DNA of 62,832 nt, the filler included, from Chrysochromulina tobinii (lineage: Eukaryota), in NCBI GenBank assembly GCA_001275005.1. It is 5 parts of 5 records of this genome, joined end to end, with 100 filler letters (N's around TTAATTAATTAA, not from the genome) between each part and the next. Parts side by side here need not be neighbours in the genome. Positions count along the whole stretch, not along the records: positions 22,804 to 38,848 come from JWZX01001279.1; 4 more parts are not named here. One strand, 5' to 3'. Under the pieces are notes generated by a model that saw only the letters and a program-made list of their open reading frames with translations, ran no database searches and had not been told where the DNA came from. A program made the translations under genes and the position numbers. Below, one piece after another: positions 22,804 to 48,750 of this stretch; position 1 is the stretch's first letter; every line of letters begins with the position of its first letter.

Positions 22804-25800
22804 GCTGCTCCAGGCGAAGCTGCGCGATGCACCTGACGCGTTCGCGTCGCACTGGAACTGGGTCGACGCGTACCTCAGCCTCACTGAGAGGCCCGAGGTG
22901 CACCGCTTGCTGCGCCAGGCGATGATGGCGCGGCGAGCGCTGCTCCTCCTCGACGGGCTCGACGAGGCGGGCACCAAGCGCGCCGAGATTGAGCAGCAAG
23001 TCGTCGAGGTGCTGGCACCGCAGGGCCACGTGATGCTCTGCACCTCGCGGCCGGCGGGCGTGGACGAGGCGCGCTTTTCCGGCTTCCACTTGCTGAAGCT
23101 GGCGCCGCTGACCGAGGCGCAGCAGGAGCAGGCGCTGCTGCAGCGGCTGGGGAATGAGGGGGACGTGAGGCAGGTGATGACCTTTGTCGAGCGCATGCCA
23201 ACGAGCACGGACCCTGCTGCGCCGACAATGCGGCATCGCGTCACGGCCAACCCGCTGATGCTCTCGATGGTCGCGTCGGTCTTCGAGATCCGCAAAGGGC
23301 TGGGCATGCCGAAGACGGTCGCCGAGCTGTACGCGTTCGCATCGGACGCGATGCTCGCGCGCGGCGGCGTCGTGACGGCAGAAGTGCGCACGCTGCTGGA
23401 AGTTGTGTTCTTCGAGGCGCACGTGGCGCAGGCGCGCGTGATCACCGAGGTGCAGCTCCTCCGCGCGGCGCTGGGCGCCTTTGCGCCGCCGGGGACGCTC
23501 GCCAACCTGGATGCGAAGGTGGCGAAGATGTCGAAGGTGTCGAACCTCTTCAAGACGTTCAAGGGCCGGCCGGAGAAGGGCCACTACGTGGAGCTGCTGG
23601 ATGGCGCGTGGAAGGGCCAACACGGCGTGATCGTCGAGTACGACAAATCAAGCACTCAATATAAGGTCAAGCTGGCGGACGGCACAACGGGGTGGCTGTA
23701 CCCCAAGAAGCTCGCATCGTCCGGGCTGGATGAAGCTGCTTGCCGGGCGCACATGGACGCGGAGCGCCTTCCTGCCCTGGACTGCGCGGTCCAGGCGCTG
23801 CGCGATGAGGAGCGGGCGGCGGTCGCGCAGGTTCGCGAGCGATTGGGGCAGGATAGGCTCCCTCTTCTCAGCCTGCTGCAGGTCGAGCCGCTCCAGATGC
23901 AGTCGGCGCACCTGTCCTTCCAGGAGTTTTTTTCCGCGCAGGCCATCTGCTCGGGCAAGTACCGCCTCCCTGAGGGGTCGCCGCCACCGTGGCAATGGCC
24001 GGCGTTTTGGGCCAACGCGGTCACGCTCGGCAGCGAGATGGGCGACGCCTTTGGCAAGGGGCTGAAGCAGACGGCCGGGGTGGATGATGAGCTCGACCTG
24101 AGCAAGAAGCTATTTGGGGGAGATCGGCCGACGATGGTCGCTGCCGTGGCGCAGCTGATGCGTGGGCTGGTGTCGCTCAGCCTGCGAGGGAACGAGTTGA
24201 CTGATGGCGAGGGTGTGAAGATGGTCGAGGCGCTCCAGGCGAACACGAGGCTGAGGCAGCTCGACTTGGGTGGCAACGAGCTCGGCGTGGGGAGCGGCAA
24301 GGCGATGGTCGAGGCGCTCAAGACGAACACGACCTTTCGCACGGTCATGTTGGACGGCGCCGTTCTCTCGATCGCAGAGCTCACTCTGCTCAAGAACAGC
24401 CTGGACGTTGAGTCGGCCACGATGCTCGCCAAGATCGGCGCGGAGAGGGGCATCATGCTCTCGGGCATGAAACGCGACCAGACGAAGGCCGACTTCTCGA
24501 GCAGGGGCCTGCAACCCGCCGACGCTATCCTGATCGGGTCAGACCTGCAGTTCATGGCGGTATTGACCTCGGTGGACCTCCAGTACAACTCCATCGGCTA
24601 CGATGGTGCCAAGGCGATCGCGGAGGCGCTGAAGGTCAACGCGGTGGTTACCACCCTCAACCTCGGGAACAACTCCATCGGGGTTGAGAGTGCCATCGTG
24701 ATCGTGGAGGCGCTGAAGGTCAACACGGTGATGACCACCCTCTTCCTCTCAAACAACAGCATCGGGGATGAGGGTGCCAGGGCGATCGCGGAGGCGCTGA
24801 AGGTCAATGCGGTCCTGACCAAGCTCTGGCTCGGGGGCAACGAGATCGGGGACGTGGGTGCCAAGGCTATCGCTGATGCCCTCAAGTCAGGCATGGCGGT
24901 CTTGACCACCCTGAGCCTGTACTCCAACAACATCGGCGACTACGGAGCCAAGGCGATCGCGGAGGCGCTGAAGATCAACGCGATGGTGACCACCCTCTAC
25001 CTCGGGAACAACTCCATCGTCACAGCACGCGAGAGGGTCGGGAGCTTGTTCGGAGTCTCCCCCTTGGTCATGGAGCGCGAGGGTGCGACGACGGGGAACG
25101 CCGCTGCCTCCGATCAACAAAGCCAAGAGAACGACGCCCAGATTCAGGAGGCTGCGCAGGCCCTACAGGATGAGCGCAGTTTCGGACGCGTCGTTGCCAT
25201 GGCTCCTGTCAGTCAGTACACAGCTGACGAAGGGAAGTCCGCCTGCACTACGATCGCCTGCTTTGGAGCGCTCGAAATGCTCCAGAGGCTTTGCACGTTT
25301 GGTGTGGGCCTAGTTGCGCAACCTGGCAGCCTTGCTTTGAGCCCTCCACACCTCAACTCAGCTGAGCTTGCAGATGCGCTTGTTCGGGTGGTCAAACAGG
25401 GAGTGGACGCTCACGTTCGAGCGCTCAGCCATAATCCAGCATCTCAGCACCGCTCTTCAAGCGAAGTCATGGATGCGTTACCTGCGACTCACGAGCTGCG
25501 ACAGAAACTATTCCGCGGCACTTGCAGCGAATACTTGCTGTCAGGCAACGAAGATGATCGGGCAGCGTGCTTCATGCAAGCGCTTCAGCCGCCGGCTGCA
25601 CCGCACACGGCAGCCAGCTACGTGCTTACGAAGCCGCCGGAGACGGTGCTTTGCGTCATCGGAGCAGACACCAGTACACCGTGTTTTATGTTGGACTTGC
25701 ACCCGAACTCGTCGCGCAGGCTGGCTGGTGCCCATGTTTTGCGCTTTGACTGCGTGCAATCCTTGTGCACCGCGCTCTGTCGCCGCTTTCCGGTGGTGCA

Positions 25801-26677
25801 CCTCCCTGATGTGGATCCGGGGGACTGGCAGCTGGCATACATGCGCCAATTCAGCGCGATGCCGCTGATGCTGACAATACCGCTGACCGACAACGAGCGC
25901 AACTTGATGCAGTGCCAATGCATGCAGGATGGAGAGCTGATGGTCGATCCAGTTCTTGCTGTGGATGGGCATACATACGAGCGTGAATACATCTTGCAGC
26001 ACTTTGAAGCCGAGCGCGAGCGCATTGCTGCTACGCATCAGCCTGCTCACGTACAAGTTCGTCACAACATCAACTCACCGCAGGGAGGCCAAATACTTGT
26101 TGAGCTGCTCGTTCCCAACCGGTTCGCTCTGACCGCGATTCAACAGGCGGTAGAAGGCGGGCGCATTGGTGATGGCGAAGTGTGCGATTGGCGTGAGCGC
26201 CGTGAAGCGGTGGTGCGTCAACGGGCTCAAGGTGGTCTAGGTGGTCAAGGTGGTTTAGGTGGTCAAGGTGAGGCCGTCCTGGCGTTGCAAAAGGAGTTTG
26301 CTGTCCTGTTGCCACCCGAGCGGCCCCGGTCACGCCTCAAGGAGGGCTTCTTGATCATCTCTGCAACCGCCGCACGGATGCTCCGCGGTGGTACATGGTG
26401 CTGTTCAAGGACCGGCTCAGCTGGTACAGGAATGACTCGAAGAAATGACTCGACCCCGATCGTGGTGCCGGTCGCCGTCGCGCTTTCCGCGCCTACCGCG
26501 CCTACCGCGCCTCCCGCATCAGACGACGGCGTCGAGATGCTCGCCGCCATGTTCCCGACATATGACAAGGAGATCCTCTCGATCATCCTCGCCGACCACA
26601 GCAACAATGTGGAGGCGGCCATGGATCAGCTGGTGCTGCTGACTCGAGACCAGTTGACCCTGACGTCTCCCAGTTGA
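22804..26677 (+). CDS. 5'-truncated NACHT/NLR-like protein (Walker B, SH3/KOW-like insert, NLRC3-type LRRs) in frame with putative VTD-like cysteine protease, U-box and CUE domains
   Basis: LLLLDGLDE, CTSRP, NPLMLSMV, HLSFQEFF; 28-aa LRRs (LxxNxIGDxGAKAIAEALKVN) to ~25018; SQY...GKSAC and MLDLHP; U-box ELMVDPVLAVDGHTYERE...LVPN; CUE LAAMFPTYDKEILSIILADHSNNVEAAMDQL; may be two genes with a second ATG at 25070. Confidence 0.75.
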
Positions 26678-27599
26678 CCCTGCGATTCGGGAGCAGTTGC
26701 GGCAATTTGCGGCCACGAGCTACGCACCCAGAGCTGAGCATGCTGCATTCTGGATGGTCTTCGTTGGCATGTATGGATGGTTGCTCGCCGTGTGCAGTGG
26801 TCGCCGGTTTTCTCAGCAGGATACCGGTCCGGTCACGGCTCGACATCAGAAGTCTATAGACGTATAGAGGTAGCTACGCACACGGCCGTACCGATAGATT
26901 CAAGATTCTACATTAAACTAATGATAGAAGATAGATACACGTTCTACATAAACGCAACACGCGCGAACCGGCGTTTTTCCGGCGACCGGGCCGACGCGGA
27001 CAGCTCGGCCCCGTGCTCATAAAATTTTCATAACAACTTTCGCACTTCGGGAGTTTCGCATTTCCGTTCGGGAGTCCGGTCACTTGCCGCCGCCGATGGC
27101 GCATGGGCATCCTCCGCGCAGGCCGCAGCTCGAGAGCTCCAGAGCCGGGGCCCGCCCACAAAGTGCCACACGCGTTGCCCCCCCACGCTCTCGCCCATGG
27201 CTTTCGCCACAACCACACTTTCAGCGATCGCCACACTCCTCACGCCCTACTCACGCCCACCACAGAACATACAGCGCTGTCCACTCGCAGCAAGAGCCAA
27301 AAGTCCCTTAACATGCGCAGCCTAGTCGTCCCAATCTACATATCATCGTGCTCCTCCCAGCAAGATGTTCGCCAAAATACATATCAGATTCGCCACCGCA
27401 TCATACCCGGCTCCAGGCCAGCAGCATGCACCTATAAGTGTGACTTGCCTAATTCCGCCACGTTGATGTGCTAACAGCGATCTGGTCCAATCTCGCCTTC
27501 CATTCTCGCCTTCAATTCACAGCGATCTGGTCCAATCTCGCCGATGGACGAGACTCGTCCTCGGTATCCGTGCAGCCGTGATGCCATTCACGCCTTCCA

Positions 27600-30500
27600 T
27601 TAACGCCTTCCATTCACGCCTTCCATCCATCGAAGGTGTGAATGGACCACGTCGCCTCGGACCGCTCTGGCTGAGACCACTGCAGACGACTCCATACTGA
27701 TGAAGGAGGCATTTATTGGTCATCAGTGGCCATCAGTGGGCACTGATGACCACGCGGACGACTCCATACTGGCCGTCTCCATCTCGTCGTCCGATGCATT
27801 CCGAGACGCCGCCTGCCGTTTGAGGGCATCGGCCATCCGAACACGGCGCACAATACCACCGGTCATCGCGCAACTGATCGTCTCCATCGCGCCATGGGCT
27901 GCCGAAGCGGCGGGCACCCCTGCCGAGGGAGCGGCAGACGAAGGGGATGTACCCGAGATAGTGGCCGAGATAGTGGCCGAGGGAGCGGCAGCCGACGGAG
28001 ATGTACCCGAGATAGTGGCCGAGATAGTGGCCGAGGAGGCAGAGGCCGAGGGGGCGGTGGCCGAGGACAGAGACACACGAAGTTTGGCGGTGGCCGGTGC
28101 GCTGACCGTGAGGCTCTGCATGCATCGGGGGACAGCAGCGCGGGCCATCTCCTCCCGAAGCGCGAGATCGGCGGCGGCCTCGTTTGCATGCGTCTCTGCG
28201 ATGGAGGCGAGCAGGTCGTTGATCATCCGTCGCTGCTCCGTGACGAAGGCGAAGATCTGGCCGTGGAAGTAGCCCTGATGAAGGAGACAATCAGTGGTCA
28301 TCAGTAGCCATCAGTGGCCATCAGTGGCGATCAGTGGCGATCAGTGTTGATCAGTAGCCATCAGTGGCCATCAGTGGCCATCATGGCCATCAGTGTTCAT
28401 CAGTGTTCATCAGTAGTGGCCATCAGAGGTCATCAGCACGCACCTCGTGGTACTCGACTTGCATGCGCGGCGCACGCTTCATAGGCGCTAAATGCTTCTC
28501 ATCGGCTGCTAAAGCCTGCTGCCACTCCAGCAGCTGTCGACGCACCTGATGAGGGCGGCAATCAGAGGTCATCAGCATGCACTCGGAGATGCAATCACAT
28601 CGGCTGCCACTCCAGCAGCTGTCGACGCACCTGATGAGGGCGGCAATCAGAGGTCATCAGCATGCACTCGGAGATGCAATCACATCGGCTGCCACTCCAG
28701 CAGCTGTCGACGCACCTGATGAGGAAAGCAATCAGACGCAGTCAGCGGCCGCCATCAGTAGTAGCTGTCGGCGCACCTCGTGCACGTCGGCGACGGTGTC
28801 CCGCCCTTCGAGGATCACGATCGACTTGCAAGGGACATCTGACGGCGCCAAGTAGTGATTGGCCCACCAGAAGCGTCGACGAAATGCGTCCTGCAGGGAG
28901 GCAATTAGCATGCAATGAGGGAGGCACTCAGCATGCAATGAGGGAGGCACTCAGCATGCAATGAGGGAGGGCCATCAGCATGCAATGAGGGAGGCACTCA
29001 TCATGCAATGAGGGAGGCCCTCAGAGGGAGGTCCCCCGACGCACCTGCAGCGAGAGCTCGAGTGTGGCGCCCATCTTCTGCGCGTAGTGCACCCAGTTGT
29101 CGCCAAACGTCTTGTGGCTGAACACCGGCTCCGCGAGCAGAAAGTTGGACACGATCGCCGACGTGTGCAGCTGGAAGCAGATCGGGTCGACCATCGTGAA
29201 TGCGACTGCCACCTCCGGTGCCTTTTTGAGGATCGCGGCGAGGACTGCCGTCCCAAACGAGTGGCTGACGAACCCCGCCCTCGAAGCGCCGCACTGGCTG
29301 AGCATCTCGCGCACCTGATGAGGGAGGCAATCAGAGGTCATCATCAGAGGTCAACATATGAAGTCATCATCGAGCATCTCGCGCAACTGACGAGGGAGGC
29401 AATCAGAGGTCATCAGCATGCACTCGGAGATGCAATCACGCACCTGGCCCGCGATCTCGCTTGGCGTGGGCGGCCATCAGAGGTCATCAGCATGCACTCG
29501 GAGATGCAATCACGCACCTGGCCCGCGATCTCGCTCGGCGTGGGCGGCCGGTGTGCAAACGTAACCGCCGGGATGGACGAGAGGGAGCACTGTGGAAAGA
29601 GAGGCACGATGATTGCGCCGCGGGTGCACCACGCCAAATGCAGGATGAAGACGCAATAGGGGAGCAGACCGCCGACGCCATGCAGGACGACGATGGGCGT
29701 CATCGTGGGCGCGCTCGGGTCCGAGCGAGAGAGCCGAGGGGGAAGGTACCTGATGAGGGAGGCAATCAGCGGTCATCAGAGGTCATCAGAGGTCATCAGA
29801 GAGCCGAGGATGGCAGTACTCGAGCCTATCAGTGGTCATCAGAGGTCATCAGAGGTCATCAGAGAGCCGAGGTGGGGGCAGGTACCAGTACTCGAGGCGC
29901 TGCTCGTCGTTCTCGCCGCGGGAGCAACGGAGTTCCAAGCCCACACGCCGGTACACCCACCTGATGAGGGAGGTCATTAGCATGCGCTCAGAGATGCAAT
30001 CAGCATGGAATCTGATGCAATCAGCATGGAATCAGATGCAATCAGATGCAATCAGCATGCAATCAGCATGCAATCAGATGCAATCACGGACGCCGGCACT
30101 CGCGCCAGATGATCGCCCCGATCGTCTGATGAGGAAGACACTCAGCAGGCACTCAGCAGGCACTCAGCATGGCACTCAGCATGGCACTCAGCATGGCACT
30201 CAGCATGGCACTCAGCATGCGCTCATACGCACCAGATGATCCCCTCGAGCGTCTGCATGTACAGATAGTACACGAGAGGCTTGTTGCATGCTTCCAGCCC
30301 GTCGAAGACGTAGCTCGCGATGCAGCGCAGCTGCGGGTTGCGCCCTTCTGGCAGCCGCTTGCCCAGCACCTGCGGGAGATTGGGCGAGGTCCAGTCAAGG
30401 GTGCCCGAATCAGTCGCAATCAGTGGCAATCAGCATGCAATGAGCGCACCGCCTCGACCATCTGGACCATCGACTCGATCAATGAGGGAGGCAATCAGCA

Positions 30501-31159
30501 TGCAATGAGGGAGGCAATCAGCATGCGATGAGCGCACCGCCTCGACCATCTGGACCATCGACTCGATCAATGAGGGAGGCAATCAGCATGCAATGAGGGA
30601 GGCAATCAGCATGCAATGAGCGCACCGCCTCGACCATCTGGACCATCGACTCGATCACGGCGCACTTCGCCTCGCCCAGGTCCGCCAGATGCGAGTTGTA
30701 GATGAGGAGCGAGAGGACGCTGGCGACATCATCGGCGCCCATCTCGCCCTCACCCGCGAACCAGGAGCGGAGCCCGCGCTCGATCGCTTCGGCCGAGTCC
30801 TCCTTGAGCACGCGCTCCCAGCACCGGCGAGCCTCCCGCGAGTCCTTCCAGCCGGTGAACATACAGTTCGGCGCCAGGCTGCGCACGTGGCGGAAGCGAC
30901 GCGTGTGGAGCCAGAAGGCGAGCTCGAGCGGCACCGCAAAGAAGACGTAGCAGGACAACGTGAGCGGCCAGCTCCGGGCGTAGAGCGAGAAGAAAACGTC
31001 CAGGAGCGCGTAGCACAGCGAGACGTACCACGGCTCGGCTTCCGCCCGGTCCGCACGTCTGCACGACTCGGTCGGCGACGAGCCCGGGGATTTCGACGGG
31101 TGCACGCCCATATCCCCGCGCGGACCTGTCGGCGGCGAACGGGCGTGTTCGGCGCGCAT
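27600..31159 (-). CDS. Alpha/beta-hydrolase fold protein, about 9 exons
   Basis: Splicing GT-AG introns 30370-30625, 29961-30232, 29750-29885, 29315-29517, 28891-29044, 28546-28776 and 28275-28443 (probably also ~27697-27769) gives one frame with PIVVLHGVGG, nucleophile SHSFG, MVDPICF, LEGRD and FHGQ; last exon tentative. Confidence 0.8.
27697..30625 (-). mobile_element. Cluster of repetitive introner-like introns (GCATGCTGA / TGATGACCTC / TGATTGCCTCCCTCATCAG family)
   Basis: Eight introns share the same short internal units and mostly the same 3' end (TGATTGCCTCCCTCATCAG or close variants), often with copies of the neighbouring exon ends. Confidence 0.7.
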
Positions 31160-31544
31160 CGTGATGAGTCGCTAAATTCGTTTGCAAAACGACTTACCGG
31201 TAGGAAACGAAAACGCGAGCTCGACACGAGATCCATCTGCAGTCGCGGCGAGCGCGCGCGCGCCCGCGGTCCGTCAGCTCCAACACGAGCAAGGGAGCGT
31301 ATTCACCAGCGTCCATAAAGTCGGGCCAACTAGAGTTATGGTTACGGGTTCGGTTACAATTTGTAGGGGTTTTCGGTTTAAGGATAAAGCCTGTGGCGCC
31401 ACAATTGTGTTGAGGGTGACTGATGTCTGACCGTAATCGAGTAAATGAAGAACTGAAGATATGTGTGTGCCAGCCAATTGGTGTGCGCACGTCACACGCG
31501 AAAATTGCTTTTTCAGACCGCAACATGCATCAGACCGCAACATC

Positions 31545-32601
31545 TCACCTACCGACCGCCTTCACCGGAAGGTCGGCGAGCTTGTCCCCACACAGTTGCC
31601 ACCACAGCTTTGCATGGGCGGACGAGGGTGCCGTCGCCAACGGCTGCCGGGTGAGCGCGTCGATGCGCAGGGCCGCCCGGCTCCATGGCTTGGGCTCGGA
31701 GAGAAAGTGGATCACCTGATGAGGGATGCAATCATAGGACATCAGATGCAATCAAGTCTCCACATGGCTTGGGCTCGGAGAGAAAGTGGATCACCGCCGG
31801 GTCGCTGGCCATCAGGCTCTCAGCGTTGATATTCACGCGATTCGACGCCGCCACAACCGTCGCGGTGGGCAATGACTTCCACCGGGGCCCAAAGTACAAG
31901 TTGAGTAGCGATTGGTCGCCAAAGATCTTCTCGCCGACATTGGCGGGCGTGCGCGCATCGCCGCGGCTATCGAGCACCGTGCCCGACCTTGCCATCATCG
32001 CCACCCTCGTCAGATTGTGAAGAAGCGCCGCGCCCGGCCGGATAATCATCAGACCCGAGTTGAAGAAGCTGAGGGCACCCTTGCGCACGGCGCCAGCAGC
32101 AGCCACCTCGTGCTCGTCAAGATCAAATGTGAGCAGCCAATCGAGCGCACCTCGCACCACCATATCGGAATCAAGAACCACCGAGCGCGACCGTGGCAAC
32201 CCCCACAGCCACAGCTTGGCGTGCGTGGCCATGTGCTCCGGACCTCTCTCAAAGAGGCCGCGCCCACGTCGCACTCGAGCTGAAGGCGCTGAGTAGTGCA
32301 TGTCCGCGATGCTCGTGGGGTGATCGGCCATGATGCGAGCGAGCGAGAAGACCCGCTCGGCACCAAAGGTATTTGCGAGGAGGGCGAACGAGTCCGCACT
32401 CAGATTGCGCTCGGGCAAACGGTCGTCGTAGACAACGTCCATCGGACAGCGGTTGCCAGCACCAGCTATTGAGCGACGGAGGCAAACGGCACCTGGGACG
32501 TATCTGTCCCCCGACACAAACGTGACGAAGGCTGCATTTGCACCACAGCCAGCGGCGTTCGAGGCGGCCGCGTGCTCGCGCCAGTGGCGCGCGGGCGGCA
32601 T
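31545..32601 (-). CDS. Glycosyltransferase family 8 (glycogenin/galactinol synthase-like); intron 31716-31794
   Basis: FVTFVSGDRYVPGA, KLWLW, VLDSDMVV (DxD), FNSGLMII, GDQSLLNLYF, VIHF...KPW; the KPW motif is completed only after splicing. Confidence 0.85.
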
Positions 32602-32923
32602 TGGGAAGCCCCGCGGCCCGCGCGGCGCCCGGAGCGGCGCTTTTCTTCGCGAAGATCGCGAAGGTCACATACAAGTAGTGATACAAAAACGGCGCGCAGT
32701 TTCTCTGATAGTTAGGGGTGTCCACTATACAGAGTGAAGACTGTCGGCTGGACTGTGGGAGTGAAATAAAGTTGAAAACCGTCAAAACCGACGCCGGTAC
32801 CACTATAATACGGAGGCACTAATCCACTCTAGTACACTCATTGTTCAATTCGAATGTGCGCAATGGACCATGCTGATCATGCTCTCGGCCCACTCCTGCT
32901 GGTCAAGCGCAAGTCAAGTCCAG

Positions 32924-34204
32924 TCAAGTCAAGTCTTGCTGTGGATCCGCCCACTCCTGCTGCGCGACGAACACATAGCGCCAGAGCCGCTCAAAGACGT
33001 GCCCCGTGATTGGGTCCACTCGCGAGCACAGACCTGATACAGGGGGGACGGGAGGAGGCGCCGTGATGAGCACTTGCATGCGTGCCCCGTGATTGGGTCC
33101 ACTCGCGAGCACAGACCGCCCATCAGAGGCAATCAGGGCTCATCAGTCGCAATCAGGGCTCATCACTCGCGAGCACAGACCGCCCTCGGGCCCCAGCGCC
33201 GTCTCGAGCACGCTGAGCGGTGTGCGCGACAGCGCGTCGCGGCTGATGGCAAACAGGGCGCCCGGTGTGAAGCCAAACCAGAGAGGTAGGGGCCGATCCG
33301 TTCCAAATAAGGAACGCCATGTTCGCTCGATTGGGAGAAGTTTGGGCTGATGCGGTGCGCCGCTCGCGTCGCAGTAGATGATCCGCTCGCCGCCGCTCCA
33401 GACACCGAGGGGTGTGAACCGCGGTAAGCGGCCAGGTGTGAGCCGCGCGGCGGCGGCGGCCAAGGTGGCCACGTCGTCGAGGAAGCTCGCGTTGTGCTCA
33501 AACGGGTTGGCTTGCGTGCAGACGAGCAGCGGTGGCGGTGGCCCTTCGGCGCCTGTGTCGGTGGTGGCGGATGCGGGAGTGGCGGCCGGGTCGTTGGTCG
33601 CAGACGCCGACGAGCCAGGGCTCGCGCTTCTCAAAGTCCCCGAAGGCTCGGAAGGCTCCAATGCCTCGGAAGTTTCCGAAGTCGAGCACATCGCGCGCCT
33701 CAAGTGGACGAGGTAGGTCAGGTACGAATGAGACTCTCGGCCCACGTTGGGAAGGAGCGTCTGGCGCGCTGGCTCGAGCTCGGGCTGCAGCGCATGCTTC
33801 TGAAGCACGTGGGCCTCCACCAACGGTGGGAGCGACTGTAGCCATGACGTGTCCTCCTGGTAGCGTGCCACGATGAGGCGCACGGTCGGTCCACCATCGC
33901 TGGCGCTCGTAGATGCGTCGGCCTGGCTTGCTCTGCTGCGCGATTCGAGCGTCAGCGTGCGCTCGCAGGGGACTTCGGCCGGCTTGAGAGCGAGCGCCGC
34001 CGGTTGCTTGGCAAGCGTCCGAGCTGCAACCATGCGGCCCAACAGCGGCAAGAGCTCAGCTGTCGGCGTCTCAAGAAGCTCTTCGCACAGGCCGCACTCG
34101 ATGAGCTGCTGACGCGCTGCAGGACTGAAGCCCGCGACAAGAGCGATCGAGCACCAGCGCTGGGCCTCCGATTCGGCGAGCGCGAGGTCCTCGGCAGAAT
34201 GCAT
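32924..34204 (-). CDS. DUF3431-like protein; intron 33034-33180
   Basis: LIVARYQEDTSWL, LPNVGRESHSYLTYL, QANPFEH, GALFAISRD, GHVFERLWRYVF; start uncertain (may be 34290 with a further intron). Confidence 0.75.
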
Positions 34205-34412
34205 GAACGCGCGCGTGATGAACAGAACTTCCGAAGTTGTGGAACGCGGGACATGTCGGCATTAGTATGTCGGCCAACCCCTTCGTCCATAGCGAAAGAT
34301 GCTCTTGTGCTGGGGGTCCGGTTGTGACAGCCTGCGCGTCGTGAGTTCGGCAGCCGCGCGAGGCACGAGTTTCGTCGAAGAGGTCTTCCTTCGGCGGCTG
34401 TCGGCGACGCTA

Positions 34413-35582
34413 ATGATGCTCCTGGTCGTCGGGCTAGTCAACGGCCTCGTTTCGCCCTGGATGGCTCGGCCGCGTGTGCCGATCACGATGATGACCGATA
34501 CGCGCTACTTGATCGATCCCATCAACGTCGGGCCGGCCACAGCCTTCCTTGAACAGCATCCGCAGCTCGACACCCCGCGCATGCAGGTCATCGGCCACCG
34601 TGCGCGCGGCCGAGCTTGACCCTCTGTCCCTGATCTGTGCCAGCCCTGTTGCTGCTCACCCAGAAATCCGCGGATCGGCCAACGTCTACGCAGAGACACC
34701 GATGACCGACGAGGCCGTGGACCAATTTCTCGTCTTTATTCAAGACACTCTCGATCTGGGCGTCCCCTTTGCAGTGCTGTGGGATGTTCGTCGCGAGAGC
34801 TTTCCCACGATGAAGCACCTCCGCAAGGTCATCTCTTGGCTCGACGAGGGCGACCGCGCCGCCGTGTGGGACTCCCGCGTCACCTGCCACTATCTCGTGC
34901 TCAGGTACCCCGAGCTCGGATCTGCCCTCGACATGACCCTGCATGCAAGTGCTCACCACGGCGCCCTCCCCATCTCGTGCTCAGGAACCCGCTCGTGCGC
35001 GCCGGTATTGGCCTCATGGCGCGCGTCGCGAACGCACCGCAGCCCGTCAGATGCGCCTCGAGCGACGCCGAGGCTCTCGTCTTTGCACAAGCATGCGCTC
35101 GGCCGGCTCGTGTGCTCAGCGCTCGCGATGCGGAGATGCGATTGCATCGCCCGGAGCCCGCTGCAGAGGTCCACTTTACCTCGGTCCAGTCCGCAGAGGC
35201 TGCGGTGGTCCAGTCCGCAGAGGCTGCAGCCCAGGTGGCCACTGGAGCGCATGCCGTCATGGACCCACGTGCCACGTCATCACCTACCGGTGCTCCTCCC
35301 AGCCCGTGTGATGATGCCACGTCATCACCTGCCGGTGCTCCTCCCAGCCCGTGTGATGATGCCACGTCATCACCTGCCGGTGCTCCTCCCAGCCCGTGTG
35401 ATGATGCCCCGAGCTTGCAGCATGCATTGCCGCATGAGACGGCACTGCACGTGCCACGTCATCACGACGAAGCCGAGGCGCAGAGGCGCACCCAAATCGG
35501 GGGTGACGAAGCCGAGGCGCAGAGGCGCATCCGAATCGGGCAGCTCGAGCTGCGCTGGCCTCGGCAGCGCTCAGGCGCTTAG
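34413..35582 (+). CDS. Hypothetical protein with signal/transit-like leader; introns ~34587-34663 and 34905-34984
   Basis: Leader MMLLVVGLVNGLVSPWMARPRVPITM; three ORF segments join through GT-AG introns; low-complexity repeat tail. Confidence 0.55.
35271..35408 (+). repeat. 45-bp coding tandem repeat x3 (ATSSPxGAPPSPCDD)
   Basis: GCCACGTCATCACCT(A/G)CCGGTGCTCCTCCCAGCCCGTGTGATGAT three times. Confidence 0.9.
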
Positions 35583-36275
35583 GACAGCGCTCAGGCGCTT
35601 AGGACTAGGCGCTTCTATAGCCAGCCCACTAAGTTGGTGCGAGGACAACGGCATCGCTATTGATCGCCTTTTATAGACCAGGAGATGAGTTGCCGCGACG
35701 AGAGCGTGAGGCAGCGCGCGTCCATACGCGCGGCATGCGAGATGGCGTCGTGGTGAGTTTGAGCATGCGAGACGGGCATGACACCAATTCGCCATGGGGA
35801 CATGCGAGATGGCGTCGTGGTGAGCACTTGCATGCGAGACGGGCACCAATTCGCCATGATCGGGGACGCGGGTCATATCCTAGACGGGCTGCCGCGCAAC
35901 GCCAACGGTGCAGTTTAAAATAATAATAAATCGAATACGATAGCCGGATAGCCGACCGTTAAATACATGGTTAAATAGCGACGGAAATATCAATTCTGAC
36001 ATCTGAGCATGATCCGTCTCTCTCGCGCCGTGCACTGAATTAAGAATTACACAGTTGTGTATCAATGACAGTCACATGTCATTCGTCCAAAGCCTTTCGT
36101 AACGGCAAAATGCGCACGGCATCACAGTGACTAAAAAGACATGGCGCTGCGCCACACGCTGCCCTGCTGCCGAGCACAGCACCTCTGACCTCATCGACCG
36201 TGCGCATGCCTCTCGACTATCCGTGTACGGAGGTAGATCCGCAGCGGGCCATGCAAGGTGCGCCCGTCACGGCGC

Positions 36276-37197
36276 CTAGTGCTGGCCGAGGAAGGCGGCT
36301 TCGCGAAGGACCTGAGCGGCACGAGCATCGAGCATCTGCTGCACGAAGGGCAGGCCAGCGTCGATGGCCGAGAAGGGCGCCATGAACTCGCCCTTGTAGG
36401 GGATCAGGGGGAGCGAGTCGAGGCCGGGCACGATCAGGCCCTTGGACGCGGACACCAAGCCGAAGATGCCCAGCTGGGCCAAGCGGCCGTTGTTGATTTC
36501 GGCGAGCAGCGCTCTCGCTTTGCGCTCGGGCGTCATCTTGGCCGTCAGGCCCAGAGGGTCCCACAGGTTGAGCGGGATGGGGTGCGGCATCTTGCCCTTG
36601 AGCTTCGGGAAGTAGCCGGGCTTGCCACCACGCACATAGTGTTGCTGGCCGTCTGCCGCAAGGAAGATCGACGACTCGCCGCACAGCTCTAGGAAGCCGA
36701 TGGCGGCGAAGATCTGCAGCTTGGCCGCCGAGGGCAGCGCATCCCCACTGGTCGCCCGGACCGCCCGCTGCCGAGATCTCGGCGAACGAGATCGGCTTGA
36801 CGCCGTGGAACGTCGCGAGGCCCTGCAGGTTCCACGGCCAGTGGATGCCGGCGGACTGGACACAGAAGCCGACGAAGGCGGCCATCGCGACGCGGCCGTG
36901 CTTGATCTCGGCGTGGCGGAACCAGCCAATCGTCTCCTTGCTCTTGTCGCCAATGTTGAGCGGGTCGTAGTACCCAAAGATGGGGTTGAGCTCGTTGGCA
37001 AGCTTCTCGAGGCCGGCCTTGTTCGAGATCTCAGTGGACTTCCACGGCTTCACCGGCGTCGTGTCAATGGCAAAGTCGCTGAAGAAGTCCTTGGCAATGT
37101 CCATCGTGGGCGTCGCCGCGCGCACGCTCGTCGGCACGGGCACCACGGCCGGCGCGAAGGAGAGGGAAGCACCCGTAAGAGCAAAAGCCAGCGACAT
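36276..37197 (-). CDS. Light-harvesting chlorophyll a/c (fucoxanthin) binding protein; one apparent frameshift at ~36743-36746
   Basis: [36 protein letters not shown]; extra G in CAGTGGGGATGCG relative to the paralog's CAGTGGGATGCG. Confidence 0.88.
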
Positions 37198-37498
37198 TGC
37201 GATTTGTGTTGTGCGCTCTCCAGGGCGAGGTGCACGCGATAATGAAGGGCTTTCCAAAAAAGGCTCCAATTGCGATTAAGCTCGCCCGTTCAGTCAGCTG
37301 TTGTGCGTATGTAACGCACCACAGAAAACAGGGAGCCGTCTTGGCGTCCGAGTTGTCGCACACGTGCAGACTGAACCCATTTTAGGAAGTTGCACCATTT
37401 TGACGAACTTGAAATTAACACGGTCTAATTAAAGGATGCAATGAAAGGATCGAAATTGCTTTTTATTTCCGCTCTGCTTCCAGCTCCTTTCCGCAAAA

Positions 37499-38444
37499 AT
37501 GCTTGCCTCTGTCGTCGCTCTTCCCTCCATGGTCGCGCCCGTCGTGCGCACGTCCACGCCCATGATGGGCGTCGCCCCCGACACGTCGTACAAGCCGTGG
37601 ACCTCGAAGGGTGCGCAAACGTGCACGAACGCAACTGCAACGGTCCCTGACATGCGTGCTCTGGGCCGCCGCTCACGCTCGCTTTTCGCCTCCCATGTTC
37701 GCAGAGATCTCGAACCAGGCTGGCCTCGAGGCGCTCGCCAACAAGCTCAACCCGATCGTTGGCTACTGGGACCCGCTCAACATTGGCACCGCTGGCTCGC
37801 CGGAGCTGATCGGCTGGTTCCGCCACGCCGAGATCAAGCACGGCCGCGTGGCGATGGCCGCCTTCGTCGGGTACATCGTGCAGGCGAACGGCATCCACTG
37901 GCCTGGCAACATTCAGATGCCACTCGGCGCTGTGAACGCGAACCTGCCGACGGTCTCGTACGCCGACATCTCGGCCGCGGGCGGCCCGAGCGACCAGTGG
38001 GATGCGCTGCCGACCGGCGCGAAGCTGCAGATCCTCGGCGCGATCGGTTTCCTCGAGTTGTGGGGTGAGGCGACGCCCGCCCTCGAGCTCGACGGCCAGC
38101 AGCACTACGTGCGCGGCGGCAAGCCCGGCTACTACCCCACCTTCAAGGGCCGCCTGCCCCACCCGGTGCCCTTCAACCTCTTCGATCCGTTTGGCTTTTC
38201 GAAGAACAAGACGCCCGAGCAGAAGGAGCGCGGCCTGCTCGTCGAGCTGAACAACGGGCGCGCGGCCCAGCTGGGCATCTTCGGCTTGGTGTCCGCGTCC
38301 AAGGGCCTGATTGTGCCCGGCCTCGACTCGCTCCCCCTGACCCCCTACAAGGGCGAGCCGATGGCTTATTTCTCGGCGGTCAACTCGGACCTGCCGTACG
38401 TCTCTGACATGCTCAACTGGCACGCCCCGGGCGGCGCGTTCTAA
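37499..38444 (+). CDS. Light-harvesting chlorophyll a/c binding protein (divergent paralog); intron 37611-37704
   Basis: [36 protein letters not shown]; spliced ...KPWTSK-E-ISNQAG matches the paralog's KPWKSTEISNKAG. Confidence 0.92.
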
Positions 38445-38792
38445 ATGCACACGGCGCCATGGGGGGGAAGGGGGGGGGGCGCGAAACTGGCCCCCACGTC
38501 GTAGCGCTGTCGTGGGCATGGATGCGTCCACGAGATGGACGAGAGGACACGAGGAGACGTCGCGGCGCCGTCGTGGGCATGGACGGCGGGAGACTCGAGA
38601 TCTCGAGAGGACACGAGTGCGGTGTGGTGGTGTGGTGAGCACCGCGACGAAACTGACATACAGGCTGACCAGGGGGGATGATGATGAGACCTGTCAAATA
38701 CGTGTACATGTAAGTGGGAGCGGCTTCTTTCGTCAATGGAACAAAGCCCGCAGCTCCCTGCATGACGTTCGTCGCGTCCCTGCGTATACACA

Positions 38793-38838
38793 GCGTCGGG
38801 TGCGTATACGCAGGTAGGTGCGTATACGCACCCGACGC
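38793..38838. repeat. Perfect 20-bp inverted repeat (hairpin) at contig end
   Basis: GCGTCGGGTGCGTATACGCA-ggtagg-TGCGTATACGCACCCGACGC. Confidence 0.85.
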
Positions 38839-38848
38839 CGCGTTTACG

Positions 38849-38948: not shown

Positions 38949-41900
38949 TCTCCTGCTCGCGGCCAGCTGCCATGCGTAGGTCTCCCATTCCCATGACACG
39001 GGCGGCGCACGTCGCGCGGACGCAGATGGTCTGCAGAGCCGCGTGCTCAAGCCGCACGACTCGTGCCAAGCCCACCACCACGCCCTGCGGGGCGCCGCTC
39101 GAAAGCACGAGCAGCTGAGCAGGCGGGCGCGACGCCGCAAGCTCCTGGACCAGAGCGAGCGCGAGCACGATGCTCTGCAGAGCTGGTGCTTGCGACGTTT
39201 CCACACAAAGTATGAGCACCACTTGCTGCACACATACGTTCGCCTTCATCATCTGAGGCGGCGAGGAGTGCTCGCCATCTGCTCCCTCTTTCAAAGCGAG
39301 CACCATGACTCGCTGATGCGACGTTGAGCCGGGATGCTCGTGGTGGTGGTGGTGCTCCGCCCGAGCTTGGAAGCACGAGCAGTAGATTGTTGTCGCTGCC
39401 GCCGACGTGCGGCCCTGTGGCATCCAAGAGAAGGTGCGCCGCCTGTAGAGTAGTAGTGGGGCCGAGAGGCTACTGGTTTGCGGTGAGAGCCGGCTCTCAT
39501 GCGATTGCGTGACCACGCTTGCGATGGTGCCACTGAATCCAAAGGCGTTCGTGAGACCACACAAGCGCTGAGCGGATGCTATCTGGCCCACTCCGATTGT
39601 CATCATGCATCGACGGCAGTCTCGAATCACCTCGTGCACATGTGCATTGAGAACGCGCAGATGCGCATTGGGCGTCTGCGATCCTGTGTGGAGGATTCCA
39701 AGCGTCTTGAGTAGTCCAGGGAGCCCAGAGGCGCCCTCGGTGTGGCCGATGTTCGCCTTGAGGCCGCCCACAGCTACATCGTGTGCCGCTTCTGCGCCCG
39801 GCGCGTCGTTGAGAAGAGTCGCCCGCACTGTACCGATTTCGATCGGATCGCCGAGCCTTGTACCGGTGCCATGCGCCTCACACCAGCGATAGCCAGAGGC
39901 TTGGGCGGCTCGACTCGCGTGCGCCACCAGCCCGCGCTGAGCGGATCCATTCGGGGCGGTCAGGCTTGCACTTCGTCCGTCGTGTCGGACTGCAGCCCCT
40001 GCCACGATCCCTGCCACGGTGGCCTTCTTCGAGTGCTCAACGTCGTCGGCACGTAGGACGAGGGCGGCACACGCTTCTCCGCGCCCCATACCGTCTGCAC
40101 GGCTGTCGAATACGTACGATCTTCCGGTCGCTGACGTCAGGCCTGCACACGAAAAGAGCGCGTGCGTAGCAGGGGAGAGGTTGAGGTTCACACCCTGCGC
40201 CAGAGCCGCCTCGCAGTCGGAGTAGAGAGCCTGCAGAGCTGCACTGGTAGCTACCAATGCAGACGAGCATGCGGTATCGAATGTGATGCATGGCCCGTGC
40301 AGCCCCATGACATACGAAAGACGCCCCGCGGCAATGGCATTGCTGGCTGCCGCTAACGCGAACGCGCTGTCTTGAGCACGAGCCGGCCGCACGGTGACCC
40401 AATCGCACTTATCCACACCCAGGAAGACGCCTACCAGCGCTCCAGCACTCGATCGCGTAATCTGTGACATATGGAGCGCCATGTAGCCGTGCTCCAACAC
40501 CAAGCGCTGCGCCGGGTCCATGACGGCAGCCTCGGCAGCGGCGATGCTGAAGGCGGCACAGTCAAAGCACTCGGCAAGGTCCAAAAAAGCGCCAAGGCCG
40601 GCATGGGCTCCCTCGGGGGCGCGCCATCGTGATGCGGGCACATCTTGAACGTTCTCCACACTCGCAGCCCCGAGCGTCCATAACGCTCCGAGGCCGCCAA
40701 CGCGCCCTGAGGTCGCAATCGCTGTGCCGGTCACCACCACTCGAGGTTTCGTCACCACAGTTCGAGGGAGCGCGTGGCGATCCGAAGCCTTCGAGATGCC
40801 AAGGGATGTGGAGGCGGCCTCGAGGCTCAGGAAGCTAGTGATGCAACGCACCGAAGGGTGATCGAAGATCAGCGTGGCAGGAATGGGCACGGCGTCGTGC
40901 ACGAGCTTTCGCAGCCTGTCGCGCAGCTCGAGAGCGCCGAGTGAGTCGATGCCCGAGTCGGACAGAGGCGCATCGGCGTCCACCAGACGGCCAGCTAACG
41001 CCTCGACCACTCCCTGCACGACATCCATGCCGAACGCGCCGTGTTGGGCGTTGGACATCTCTGGGGGTGCAGCCGCCGCTGGGCTCGGGGCTTGCATAGC
41101 ACCAGAACCAGTACCAGTGAGAGCGGCTGGCAGGACTGCGAAGCAACTTGCGGGTAGACGCAGCGCCATGCACAGTGCCGCTGAGACCACGGCACGTGTG
41201 ATGCTCCCAACCCCAGCGCGCGCTGCATAGCCAATCTCGGCGACGGGGCCCCAGCTGATGCAGCTGGCGTGCAGGCTGCGTGCCAGCCGAAAGCCGGCCA
41301 TCGAGTCCAACCAGGCGTTGGCCGACGAGTGCGGCGACTGTCCGGCGGATCCCAGGAGCCCCGCTATGGATGAATACAAGCTGAAGAATCGGAGAGGGGT
41401 GCGGTGAGTGGCCTTGTGGAGCGCGACGGCACCATGCACCTTCGGCCCGTAGTGGAGGCTGAGACTCGATGCGTGTTGGTTGGTGAGGATACCATCCGAG
41501 AGCTGATGTGCCGCGTGGAAGACGCCACCGAGCAGTTGCTGGGCGGTGCGTTGCACGGCGCATGCAGCTTCGTGCACCGACGACTCGTCCGACACGTCGC
41601 ACCGGATGCGCTCCACGCTCGCACGCGACCTTTCGATCCACTTCCAATCCTGCTCACTGCCCGCTGAGACCCTGTCCGAGCGCGAGCAGAGGACGAGCCG
41701 TCGTGCGTATCCCCCCTCGACGAGCAGCCGTGCGGTGAGCAGGCCGAGGCCGCCCAGCCCCCCCGAGAACAAGTAGGCTCTCTCGGATCCGTCTGCATCC
41801 TTTCTGAGGGCGTCTGCATGCGAGCCCGGCCGTGGTCTGGGCGCTCGCCCTAATTGAGCGACCATGACTGCTTGTCGCATGCAGACGCCCTCAGCTTGCA

Positions 41901-44900
41901 TGCAGAGGCGCTGGCCGAAGCCGCTGTCTGAGAAGAGGCCTTCCCACTGCCGCCACGTCATCAACGGGCTGGCTTGCCCAATCCGCTCTGGGTCGCGGCT
42001 CTCAGCAAAGCGCCACCAGCCATCGGTCAGTCCAAACGTGATCTGAGCAAACATGTCGGCATGTGTGGCCTCGTTGACGAGGAGCAGGCCGCCGGGGCAG
42101 AGCAGTTTGGCGCAGTTGCGGAGCGTGCGCCCTACAAAGGGCGTCGCATGCAGCACATTGGTCGCGATCACGACATGGTGCTCGCCCAGCGCAAAGCCTT
42201 GCAGCGCAGGGTCCATGTCAATGTTGAGCAACGCATACTCCACGATGCTCTCCGCCTCAAAGCGCTGGCGAGCCCGCCGCAAGAAGCTCTCGGAGACGTC
42301 GGTGAACACGTAGCGCTCGCACTTTCCGCGTAGCACCGCCAAGATGCTCGACGCCGTACCGCCCGTTCCAGCTCCAACTTCGAGTACGACAAATGGGCGG
42401 GGGGCTGCTTGCAACGAGAGCGCTGTCTCGAGCGCAGAGACCAGGCATTCGTTGCAGAACGCGCCGCGGACGGAGTCCTCGTAGACGCTCAGGACGGCGC
42501 CCAACGACCCCTCAGGAAAGAGAGCCTCCTGGCTGGTGAGCTGGCCCATGAGCACTTCTGCCAGCCGTGAGCCACACCGCTCTGCAAGTTGCACTTCCGG
42601 CCATAAGAGCGGCTGCCTCGCGAGCACCGTCTCGCTCGTGACAAGAGGTGCAGCGTGGGCGGCGGCGCAGTCGTCTTGTGCGGCCCGGAGCGCTGTATCA
42701 AGCGCCCGAAGGAGGCACCTGTGATGCCAAAGGGGCACGGCCTCGCCCTGCACCCTTTGCAACGCATGGCGAGCGTACTGCAGACATAACTGCTCAAGTT
42801 GCGCAAAGGCTGAGTCTAGGCGCTTACGGGCATCGAGTTTGGCAGCCGCTTCGGCCATATGGGCATCGAGGTGATCGCGAAGGGTCGCGAAGCTGATCTG
42901 CCAGGCGCTCGCGCCAGCCGTGACGATCGATGCTAATCGAGGCACGTGCACAGCCATGCCGTGAATGGTCGTGCCGTGAATGGTCGCTTCTAGCTCAGTC
43001 GACTCAGTGGATCCCAGCCATGAGAGATCGCATCTCGGCAGCGCAAGCACATTCGCCCAGACGGGCAGACGCAGAGCTTGCGCTGCACCGCCACCCACAT
43101 CGAGGCAGCACACCGCGGCCCCAGAGTGCTCCTTACGAGCGGTGCGTGCCAAACCCCACAGTCCAGAGTGCGCCGCACGCACGCTCGACATGGACACAGG
43201 CTGCGTGTTCGACGTGCAGAGAAAGATGGGGGTTGCGTGCTGCTGCATCATCGCTTGGCATTGCAGCAGGGCAAGGGCAGCATCAACGACCGGCAGCTCA
43301 CACGCGCACGAGCCAGCTCCATGTTCGAGTGCGAGGATGAACAGAATTCCACTCCACTGACGGGTGCCGTGCAGCAGTGCGAGCATACGCGCTCGCGACG
43401 GCGCGCGTTCCATACGACCGAGGACGAGGAGCCTCTCGGATGGGGGCTCTCTGACCAACGATCCATCGGAAGTCGCGACGCGTACCCAGCTCATTCGATA
43501 ATAGGCCCCATCCTGTCTGGTGGCGCCCGTTGCGGCTGCGGCGCGCGAGGGCATAGAGCGCTCTGGTACTACTCTCCAAGGAAAGGCGATGCGGCAATAG
43601 ACGAGGGGCTGCTGTGAAAGGGGCTGCTGTGAAAGGGGCGGGGATCCCGTGCGTTGATGCAGCACCGCATGTGCAATGGTGCCACTGTATCCAAAAGAGC
43701 TGATCTGGCCTGCTAGCTCCAGCGCCGCATGACTGTCTCCCGCCCTGCCCAGTTGCGTGGGCATCGCCAGCATGCGGCCGCGAAGCCCATGGCGCACATG
43801 AGGGTTGAGAATGCGAAGCTGCGCATTCGGAACGGACGCGTGCTCTTGTAAGGCGAGCACAAGCTCAAGTAGTCCGACGATTCCAGCCGCAGGCTCTGCA
43901 TGGCCCAATGTGGCCTTGACACCACTGGCTGCCACCCGCATCCACTCACGCCCAGGGCCGAGCACGGCGGCAGAAAAGGAGCCAACCTCAATCGGATCGC
44001 CGAGCGACGTGCCCGTGCCGTGCATCTCCGCGAGCCTGGGCGACCCAGATCGCAACGCCGCGTCGGCCAATGCGGCCACGAGAAGGCTCTGCTGCGCCCG
44101 GCCGTTAGGCGCCGTGAGGCTGGCCGATTTGCCGTCCTGCTGGACCGCACTCCCGTCGAGGATGGGCGCTGTGATGGGCGCCGCGCTGGGCGCTGTGATG
44201 GGCGCCGCATTCGAAGCGTGAGGTACCGGTTGCATCACCAGGCTGGCGCATGCATCGGCGCGAGCGTACCCGTCAGCACGCACATCGAAGGTGTGCGAAC
44301 GGCCTCGCTCGGACGTCATGCCAGCCAGCGCGAGGTTCCTACTCGCGGCCGGCGCAAGCATGAGCATGACGCCCGAGACCAGACCCAAGGTACACTCCTT
44401 GAATTGAAGAGCACGCCTCGCAGCGTGGCACGAGACGAGCGACGCGGAGCAAGCCGTGTCGCACGAGACACTCGGACCATGCAGACCGAGCACGTACGAG
44501 AGGCGGCCCGAAGCGATGGCGAGGCTCGAGCCTGTGGCCGTGTATGCGCTAGCCGCCGCCCCGGCCGTGGCGAGCACCTGCGCAAACTCTGTGGAAGCAA
44601 TGCCAAGGAAGACGCCAGTGAGCGTGCCCTCGAGCGCGGAGCGTCGCAAACCGGCTTCGTACAGTGCGGAGTAGCCACGCTCGGCCAGCATGCGATGTTG
44701 AGGGTCCATCGCGGCGGCCTCGACGGGAGAGATGTGGAAGGCGTCGTTGTCGAAGAGCTCCTCACCGTTAACGAACCCGCCTTGGCGCATGCGCCGCTCA
44801 ACGTGCGGAGAGAGCCCAGCCGCCACAGCATCATGGTTCCATCGCACTGCAGGGACCTGCCGAATCACGTCCGTGCCACACGCAGCCAAGTGCACGAGCG

Positions 44901-47900: not shown

Positions 47901-48750
47901 AGCCAGGACCGTATTGCAGGCCCGCGGCATGGAAGCTGTCATACAATGCGCACGCATCGACGCTCAGGGCGCAACGCCCACGCGCCATCGAAGGATCCAC
48001 CACCTTCCGCCTGCTCTCGCTCCAACATGCTCCACCCGAGCAGTGCAGCGTCCCTGCGCGTCCGCTCCCGAGGACGCTACTACGCACCTCAAACTGCCCG
48101 GCGAGCAGCGAGCTCTCGATGCACGTGTCGGACGCCTCCAGAACGAGCTGAGACACGAAGAAGACACCCTGCAGCACTGCCGACGCTGCGCCGCCTGGCG
48201 CCCCAGGTCGAGCACACGCCAGTGCGCGCGCCAGCTCGAGATACGCAGCGCCCGGGAACACGACGCGGCCATGGACTACATGGTCGGCCACGAGCGAATG
48301 CAACACGCCGTCACAATGAGAGCGGTACTGCACCGCGACGGAATCGTCTGCATCCACGAAGCGGTGCTGCAAAAACGGATGCGCTGGCGAACACCAAGAG
48401 AACGCGCGCCGGCGCGTAGCTGCGGCAGACACCATGGCTACATCTCGAATAACGGGCGCGCTTGATGCGCGTAGAACGACATGCGCGATCGTGCCGCTGA
48501 AGCCAAACGAGCTCACCCCGCGCGCGCCTGTGCACGCGCTCCGCACCTCCTGCGTTGGCAGCGCCAGCCGATCGCACAATGAGCCGAGCCGCGCCCTCAC
48601 CAAAGGGTTCAACAGCCGCAGGCGCGCGTTGCCACACGCGCGCTGCACGCGCAACGCCTGCAGCATGCCGTGCAGACCGGAGGCCGCCTCCGAGTGGCCC
48701 ACATTCGCCTTGCCGCCGCCCACCGTCGCCGCGGCCAACCGAACACCGTA
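38949..48750 (-). CDS. Multimodular type I polyketide synthase, internal fragment: [KS end]-DH-ER-KR-ACP-KS-MT-KR-ACP-KS-, no AT domain
   Basis: >3260 aa open at both contig ends; KS DTACS/HGTGT/GH motifs (two complete, one partial); DH HVVHGRVVFPG; ER HAAAGGVG; KR GGTAGLG/GQANY and GGLGGLG/GQSPH; ACP GLDSL and GIDSL; MT LEVGAGTGG and NVLHAT. Confidence 0.95.

Follow-up and report, generated by a model that had tools for sequence, protein, structure and literature searches.

Spliced introns with shared 3′ ends and duplicated host exon at a locus of Chrysochromulina tobinii

How new spliceosomal introns originate outside transposon-type introners is an open question, and it is raised by a locus of the freshwater alga Chrysochromulina tobinii. 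We analysed a 62,832 nt stretch of this genome (assembly GCA_001275005.1), here called the window, in which neighbouring genes denoted A, C, D and E contain introns built from shared short units; introns are named by host gene and number (Table 1). A preliminary description, made from the sequence alone, took about 11 of them as an introner-like family in which a duplicated piece of host exon supplies one splice site. The introns are spliced, share two types of 3′ end, lie in the sense orientation, include exon copies that abut their junctions and have no inverted ends. We propose that they may have arisen by staggered-break repair of the gene, with the 3′ part of a pre-existing family intron copied in and a variable target duplication left behind, a reading that we give about an even chance.

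Splicing was judged from contigs of six distinct sequencing runs; four of the 20 runs listed contain none of the region. RNA contigs were aligned over 27300-38840 and those of a single DNA run over 31200-38840. Four RNA runs cover the joints of genes A and E, which make up nine of the 15 joints listed (18 further joints lie outside this list), and C1 and D1 were judged on three RNA runs. The RNA contigs are joined at GT..AG for ten of the 11 candidate unit-bearing introns, much as predicted beforehand, and the DNA run shows no joined form within its interval. The eleventh candidate, an A-type insert around position 27697 at the stop codon of gene A, was rejected as an intron: the listed contigs of three of the four RNA runs cross it without a joint, and no GT..AG cut takes out exactly one of its flanking copies. 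This insert is apparently common to all seven listed proteins that reach its position; four of them end as in the window or in C. parva, and three end in SSAQ, an ending that in our reading reflects a two-base shortening of this insert. The ten spliced introns are unevenly spread, since gene A hosts seven and genes C, D and E have one unit-bearing intron each, no more than background. The proposed set of about 11 introns in four genes is therefore reduced to ten, mostly in one gene. C. tobin genes have one intron on average (PMC4580454), and the remark that most other genes in the window have 0-1 introns was assessed by RNA for 27300-38840 and by long open frames elsewhere.

Cutting the seven introns out of gene A leaves an open frame of 671 aa that can be aligned with its relatives, one of which (P0002) matches Pfam PF00561. 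Its protein cluster has C. tobinii KOO34254.1 and models of C. parva as named members, and KOO34254.1 differs from the spliced product by an 8-residue repeat. Gene models are thus misled at this locus, as the named gene A models keep duplicated exon pieces that the RNA removes. Two of the C. parva models (P0052 and P0097) contain repeated exon pieces, with SDGGPTVRLI present three times and MVEA, WLEY and DTVADVHEVRR repeated; these are likely further duplication-flanked introns misread by annotation.

Similarity among the introns is confined to their 3′ parts, and the 5′ ends are host-exon copies or vary between loci. Module A consists of 10-12 nt units around CTGAT, which resembles a branch point, with the 3′ end ...CCTCCCTCATCAG; module B is GCATGCAAGTGCTCA followed by a pyrimidine run and CAG. 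Tandem arrays of 10-23 nt occur in most family introns. The claim of shared short units is borne out by the 19-mer acceptor end, which is matched 15 times when up to three mismatches are allowed, whereas 100 shuffles give an expectation of 0.00. Every match is on the minus (sense) strand, within 27697-31734, and only two of the copies are exact. Unit matches and pairwise alignment show that introns of unrelated genes share similar sequence. Within the window, neighbouring introns reach alignment scores of 61 (A4/A6, which share 52 nt), 47 (A1/A5), 28 (A7 and the 27697 insert) and 22 (D1/E2), compared with 5-8 for the two unit-free introns, both of which lack the family 3′ end. The absence of terminal inverted repeats, noted earlier, is confirmed by end-to-end inverted scores of 3-7 against 5-6 in controls. 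The five family sequences folded show no stable fold (z of −0.34 to +0.58 against shuffles), the inserts have no poly(A) tail and the 21 open reading frames (ORFs) scanned in the window include no reverse transcriptase. A single Rfam match lay far below the cut-off and is attributed to chance, and a likeness of the units to C/D boxes was dropped.

Contigs of other loci pile onto the units, with 319-424 RNA contigs aligned per run, and DNA depth on the B-unit bin is 8611 compared with about 45; both are hints of many copies elsewhere that give no copy number. At the end of the piece, another short repeat (38781-38833) has a depth bin of 1087 compared with about 45. A short-word search with the introns as queries returned, outside 27.6-35.9 kb, a single 14-nt match at chance level, and the acceptor 19-mer has five single matches in prokaryote genomes, taken as chance. 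An atlas search returned GT8 look-alikes only. In viral contigs three A patterns gave 0, 0 and 0 matches, and two B patterns gave one locus, a single example at a contig end (L013:2720-3060). This stretch looks like algal DNA: its B unit has CAG as the last three bases, and A-like units, 10-nt repeats and a duplication nested in another are present as well; the contig is probably chimeric. A B-type unit outside coding sequence, antisense to the 3′ end of gene E, was considered as a possible insert flanked by a clean long duplication; this was rejected, since the unit sits in a decayed tandem pair.

The preliminary description placed many of the introns between 14-33 bp direct duplications of coding sequence, with one copy giving a splice site and being removed together with the insert. 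This holds for part of the family. Exact boundary duplications of at least 13 nt occur in three of the ten introns (slide of 33 nt in C1, 18 nt in D1 and 14 nt in E2); the other seven slide by 3-8 nt, and the two unit-free introns by 0 and 1. In C1 and D1 the duplicate supplies the GT and in E2 the AG, and splicing of these three takes out exactly one copy plus the insert. A3 and A6 show the same arrangement in decayed form, with the GT from the duplicate, and A5 and A7 show no long exon duplication at all. A duplicate-derived site is not supported as a general rule. The duplications are nevertheless long and variable, as had been stated, with slides of 3-33 nt and exon copies of up to 36 nt. 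Internal exon copies of 14-36 nt abut a junction in A1, A2, A4, A6 and D1; in a control of 264 pairs, exact matches to non-cognate flanks did not exceed 11 nt. The exon ends in G or AG at all ten sites, and the next exon opens with GT at seven (p=2e-4 given G at +1), which fits donors drawn from the duplicated target. The 3′ part of A1 is unique and ordinary.

Table 1. Features of the locus, with the number of RNA runs showing the joint.
Feature	Position	Strand	Runs with joint	Description
Piece of window holding the region	22804-38848			JWZX01001279.1
Gene A	27723..31159	-		8 exons; 671 aa, alpha/beta-hydrolase-like; seven spliced unit-bearing introns and one unspliced insert
Intron A1	30370..30625	-	4/4	own GTGCGC donor; three 88-nt tandem units, each with 32 nt of upstream exon
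Intron A2	29961..30232	-	3/4	A-type acceptor end; decayed internal 23-nt upstream-exon copy behind a second acceptor-like end
Intron A3	29750..29885	-	3/4	opens with decayed 22-25 nt copy of next exon
Intron A4	29315..29517	-	2/4	57-nt core (29387-29443); duplications across donor (32 nt exon) and acceptor (14 nt exon)
Intron A5	28891..29044	-	3/4	23-nt unit array; slide only 7 nt
Intron A6	28546..28776	-	3/4	decayed next-exon copy at donor, followed by a pair of 85-nt units, each of 28 nt exon and 57 nt A-type end
Intron A7	28275..28443	-	4/4	10-nt unit array, A-type end; no exon copy
Insert at gene A stop codon	27671..27771	-	unspliced	A-type; flanked by 29-nt copies, of which 15 nt match exactly; source of the stop
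Gene C	31545..32601	-		glycosyltransferase family 8; spliced product 325 aa
Intron C1	31716..31794	-	2/3	32-nt exact next-exon copy (gives GT) and 47-nt A-type end (gives AG)
Gene D	32924..34204	-		DUF3431 family; spliced product 377 aa
Intron D1	33034..33180	-	1/3	B-type end with 36-nt exon copy; later A-unit insert with 22-nt copy across donor
Gene E	34299..35582	+		no Pfam match; start codon uncertain; two introns
Intron E1	34600..34693	+	spliced	ordinary; unit-free, duplication-free; control
Intron E2	34905..34984	+	3/4	B-type unit; last 13 nt copy upstream exon end, source of AG
B-type unit outside coding sequence	35811..35835	-	crossed unspliced	in decayed tandem pair
Ordinary intron	37611-37704		RNA joint	

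To order these events, we compared alleles, that is, ORFs of other strains' contigs that run into or across the introns, at the protein level and among the cluster members listed (15 of 75 for C1, 15 of 35 for the sister cluster of D1 and 15 of 30 for its close cluster). Seven of the C1 alleles read through the site, seven enter the long-duplication intron and one enters a short intron. The seven long alleles hold the same intron, although five end in WRLDCI and two as in the window; WRLDCI is the window sequence in another frame, which implies an original C1 copy of 35 nt. The short allele (P0031) enters the units after about 7 nt and may reflect either parallel gain at C1 or derivation by deletion. 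Two of the read-through alleles, 98.5-98.9% identical, lie on contigs of 10.7 and 17.2 kb. For one of them, P0025 (265/269 identical, 98.5%), the longest contig measures 10,671 nt, exactly as for the ORFs that enter unspliced D1, A4, A5 and A7, so these probably share one genomic contig; the other, P0030, lies on a contig of 17,171 nt, as does a D read-through ORF. In gene C, alleles P0007, P0026 and P0030 have an in-frame insertion that repeats LFE (GRG-LFETRR-LFERG) and possibly stems from the same process of insertion with duplication, here with the frame preserved.

At D1, all 15 listed members of the sister cluster read through, on contigs of up to 17 kb; the two proteins measured are 85% identical. 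In the close cluster, eight alleles run through the full exon copy directly into the B unit, after which they enter a separate donor-side duplication at a GTGCTC microhomology, and seven carry the extra A insert of the window. As the eight have the exon copy and the B unit without the A insert of the window, the B unit and the 36-nt copy would have come first. No listed allele has a simple B intron at D1. The A4 alleles that cover the donor (n=9) comprise one plain 57-nt intron, four with the acceptor-side copy added, three with another donor-side duplication and one as in the window. For A1 (n=22), 13 alleles open without expanded units and nine are expanded, eight of these with the exon copy; four of the 13 run as far as the unique 3′ part and have no exon copy, and nine stop too early to tell. 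Since other alleles hold the A4 and A1 introns without long exon copies, the copies at these two introns are later events.

Family introns also occur at sites that are empty in the window: gene A has one behind PLFPQ (3 of 12), and gene D has one ahead of VGRESH (P0034). The former starts with GTGAT, unlike the next exon, and seems to bring its own GT; the latter ends like the neighbouring C1 (MTYDCIPHQ compared with MSYDCIPHQ). An unbroken 599-aa ortholog on a 12,133-nt contig, probably genomic, crosses all seven gene-A sites. The anticipated presence/absence differences among relatives are thus seen at C1, D1 and two new sites, and at the protein level they suggest that introns have been gained recently and are still being gained. 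Very close strains differ at this locus in having empty alleles, simple introns or nested duplication at one of several stages. The events can accordingly be put in order, and a cultured alga allows a test of whether DNA or intron RNA is the template.

From these alleles we infer two layers of events: an intron is born together with a duplication of between a few and 36 nt, and further events then take place at existing introns. A staggered break would open the gene, and repair would switch template into an existing family intron, often nearby, so that its 3′ part with branch-point-like units and acceptor would be copied in. A variable duplication of the target would remain, with a primary length from a few bases to 35-36 nt as judged from the ORFs of other strains, and the GT of the duplicate would then act as donor. 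In later rounds, the same type of event and plain microhomology tandem duplication would strike existing introns, which would explain the nested copies in A1, A2, A4, A6 and D1, and selection would keep only events that are spliceable or tolerated. We infer the break, the DNA template switch and the selection step. Break repair is favoured because neighbouring introns share private variants, because unselected inserts end at several microhomologies, as microhomology-led switching allows, and because Daphnia offers a precedent for repeated rounds (PMC4202315).

Several points weigh against this reading. Five of the seven C1 read-through proteins lie on short contigs and possibly come from transcripts, and precise loss is possible at a 35-nt direct repeat, so the empty C1 allele is not necessarily ancestral. 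The simple 57-nt A4 allele (P0136) has a standard GTGCGT donor, the four A1 alleles without an exon copy show that a long duplication is not needed at birth, and A5 and A7 have none. The allele evidence is entirely at the protein level and from listed subsets, it does not extend to A6 and E2, and allele-bearing ORFs were assigned to a shared contig solely through equal size. DNA of a relative is missing from the seven loci of the single metagenome scan, six of which are near-identical to the window and one unrelated. The local similarity scores compare sequences within the window. Finally, the sense-only, gene-only placement suits an RNA route at least equally.

Such a route would take excised intron RNA as the template: its free 3′ end (...CAG) would join or prime at the target, by partial reverse splicing into R-loop DNA or by target-primed reverse transcription, with the 5′ part truncated and the downstream-exon duplication created by fill-in. 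It accounts for the constant 3′ end at the acceptor with a variable 5′ part and for the G or AG at the exon ends of all ten sites, and it explains as well or better why all 15 A ends are sense and end in AG. The unspliced 27697 insert and the internal insert of A2, both free of selection for splicing, still stop at CAG, at a CAG target; the other unselected inserts stop at TGAT or TCAT, before the AG. With no poly(A) tail, no reverse transcriptase among the ORFs scanned, one B copy antisense to gene E and a chemistry that is proposed but not shown in the accessible text of PMC10996645, we consider an RNA template rather unlikely. The same holds for a version in which spliced-out introns seed new ones: the lariat 3′ tail would be joined into the sense strand at an exon-junction-like site of a transcribed gene, and the upstream end, after fill-in over 5-36 nt, would be linked to the truncated tail. 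If this is true, such introns would be half host exon and half copied acceptor module, each a new template, and intron gain in this culturable alga would be transposase-free, self-propagating, at work today and undetected by current screens.

It is likewise improbable that the family is a conventional short introner of about 57 nt with its own donor and a 0-5 nt duplication, in which the long exon copies are later tandem duplications and introns such as C1 and D1 result from subsequent deletion of the original first unit. The simple A4 and A1 alleles, the short-duplication C1 allele P0031, the GTGAT start after PLFPQ and the published marine Chrysochromulina introner, with a 4-nt duplication and its own donor (10.1101/2022.06.06.494994), agree with this, but all 15 listed close D1 alleles and seven of the eight intron-bearing C1 alleles open with an exon copy, D1 has no simple B form, 5′ ends are not common between loci, and two extra steps would be required at each of C1, D1, A3 and A6. 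We think it very unlikely that the introns are old and merely share a strong branch-point and acceptor consensus enlarged by minisatellite slippage. The branch-point-like CTGAT, the ordinary 3′ part of A1 and the plain arrays of A5 and A7 would fit, and the idea may still hold for A1; it is already weakened by the C1 and D1 read-through alleles, the new sites in other strains, the unbroken ortholog, the two unit-free introns without the shared end and the 52 nt common to A4 and A6. Assembly stutter as the source of the duplications is the most improbable of all. The assemblies do disagree at the C-rich run of A3, where four of six other assemblies have an extra stretch that the window lacks. 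Outside A3, however, these six short-read assemblies match the duplications they overlap at about 100% identity, the RNA skips exactly one copy plus the insert, and ORFs of other strains translate the same copies with their own substitutions.

The surroundings show further features. Gene E contains a coding 45-nt tandem repeat (35270-35408) whose copy number varies between assemblies. A pair of paralogs of the light-harvesting (chlorophyll a/b-binding) type, oppositely oriented and 79% alike, lies at 36220-38441; positions 36743 and 38469 each differ by a single-base indel in all RNA and DNA contigs and are probably assembly errors of the window. A long open frame on the plus strand (22805-26677) has NACHT-like, LRR and CUE matches, and assembly L011 differs from the window at 19 bases within it. 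In contrast to gene A, a polyketide-synthase fragment on the minus strand (38950-48750) is open for more than 3,200 codons without needing an intron.

The co-option of a target duplication as a splice site is established (10.1101/2022.06.06.494994; 10.1101/2020.10.14.339549; PMC11282704). Introners with one site from the duplicate occur in Symbiodinium, Polarella (classes 4/5 and 6/8/10), Aureococcus, Micromonas (IE1) and a marine Chrysochromulina metagenome-assembled genome. Like them, the present family consists of multi-copy introns in which the insert gives one site and the duplicated target the other, leaving the mRNA unchanged. Those introners have fixed duplications of 3-9 nt (PMC9860276), mostly inverted ends and end-to-end similarity, whereas here the duplications vary up to 35-36 nt, inverted ends are absent, the 5′ ends are host-derived and the units are in tandem. 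The published Chrysochromulina introner, which has a 4 nt duplication and carries the donor, is set apart here by its description and not by a consensus. Measured against the definition of Gozashti 2022, the family shows splicing (10/11), similar introns in unrelated genes and recent gain at the protein level; it lacks similarity to both ends and is of a low-complexity, microsatellite-like kind. It also lacks the terminal inverted repeats and fixed 3-9 nt duplication of introners of the miniature inverted-repeat transposable element type (here slide 3-33 nt, copies to 36 nt). The family therefore works like an introner, being spliced, spreading and recently gained, and is not a member by the strict published test.

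In the 12 of 14 available files of the 2025 screen supplement, 0 introner families are listed for C. tobinii, and in the 2022 supplement the species appears only in the download table, not in the positive tables inspected. The literature searched, mostly outside subscription papers, bioRxiv supplements and introner consensus files, holds no description of this family; nor does it describe 10-11 bp intronic repeats in Emiliania. The published pipeline demands similarity at both intron ends and drops low-complexity families (PMC9860276). As only the 3′ ends are shared and are repetitive, screens that look for likeness at both ends would miss such families, and this mode of intron gain is possibly under-counted.

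Among other known systems, introners of the non-long-terminal-repeat (non-LTR) type are reported to make up about 5% of classified families (PMC12130899). As in non-LTR retroposition like that of short interspersed nuclear elements, the 3′ end here is constant, the 5′ end truncated and the duplication variable; in the window, a poly(A) or simple tail, both orientations and intergenic copies are absent. Fungal introner-like elements and reverse-splicing models resemble the family in being sense-only, gene-biased and short without inverted ends (here 15/15 A ends are sense within genes, with one B copy outside coding sequence), but they are free of target duplications and are predicted to fold stably, whereas the present family has long duplications and does not fold better than its shuffles. 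In AGGT tandem genomic duplication (PMC3443670), duplicated exon sequence also yields a splice site; there both sites come from the duplicate without foreign filler, and here family sequence is added. A broad survey (PMC11782384) puts the mean length of direct repeats near splice sites at 11.4 nt. Finally, new introns of Daphnia pulex arise from staggered double-strand breaks (PMC4202315), and the likeness extends to the direct repeat with the adjacent exon, the internal repeats of later rounds and the population polymorphism. The Daphnia repeats are 4-12 nt with filler mostly of unknown, unshared origin, whereas at this locus the filler is a shared, splice-ready 3′ module.

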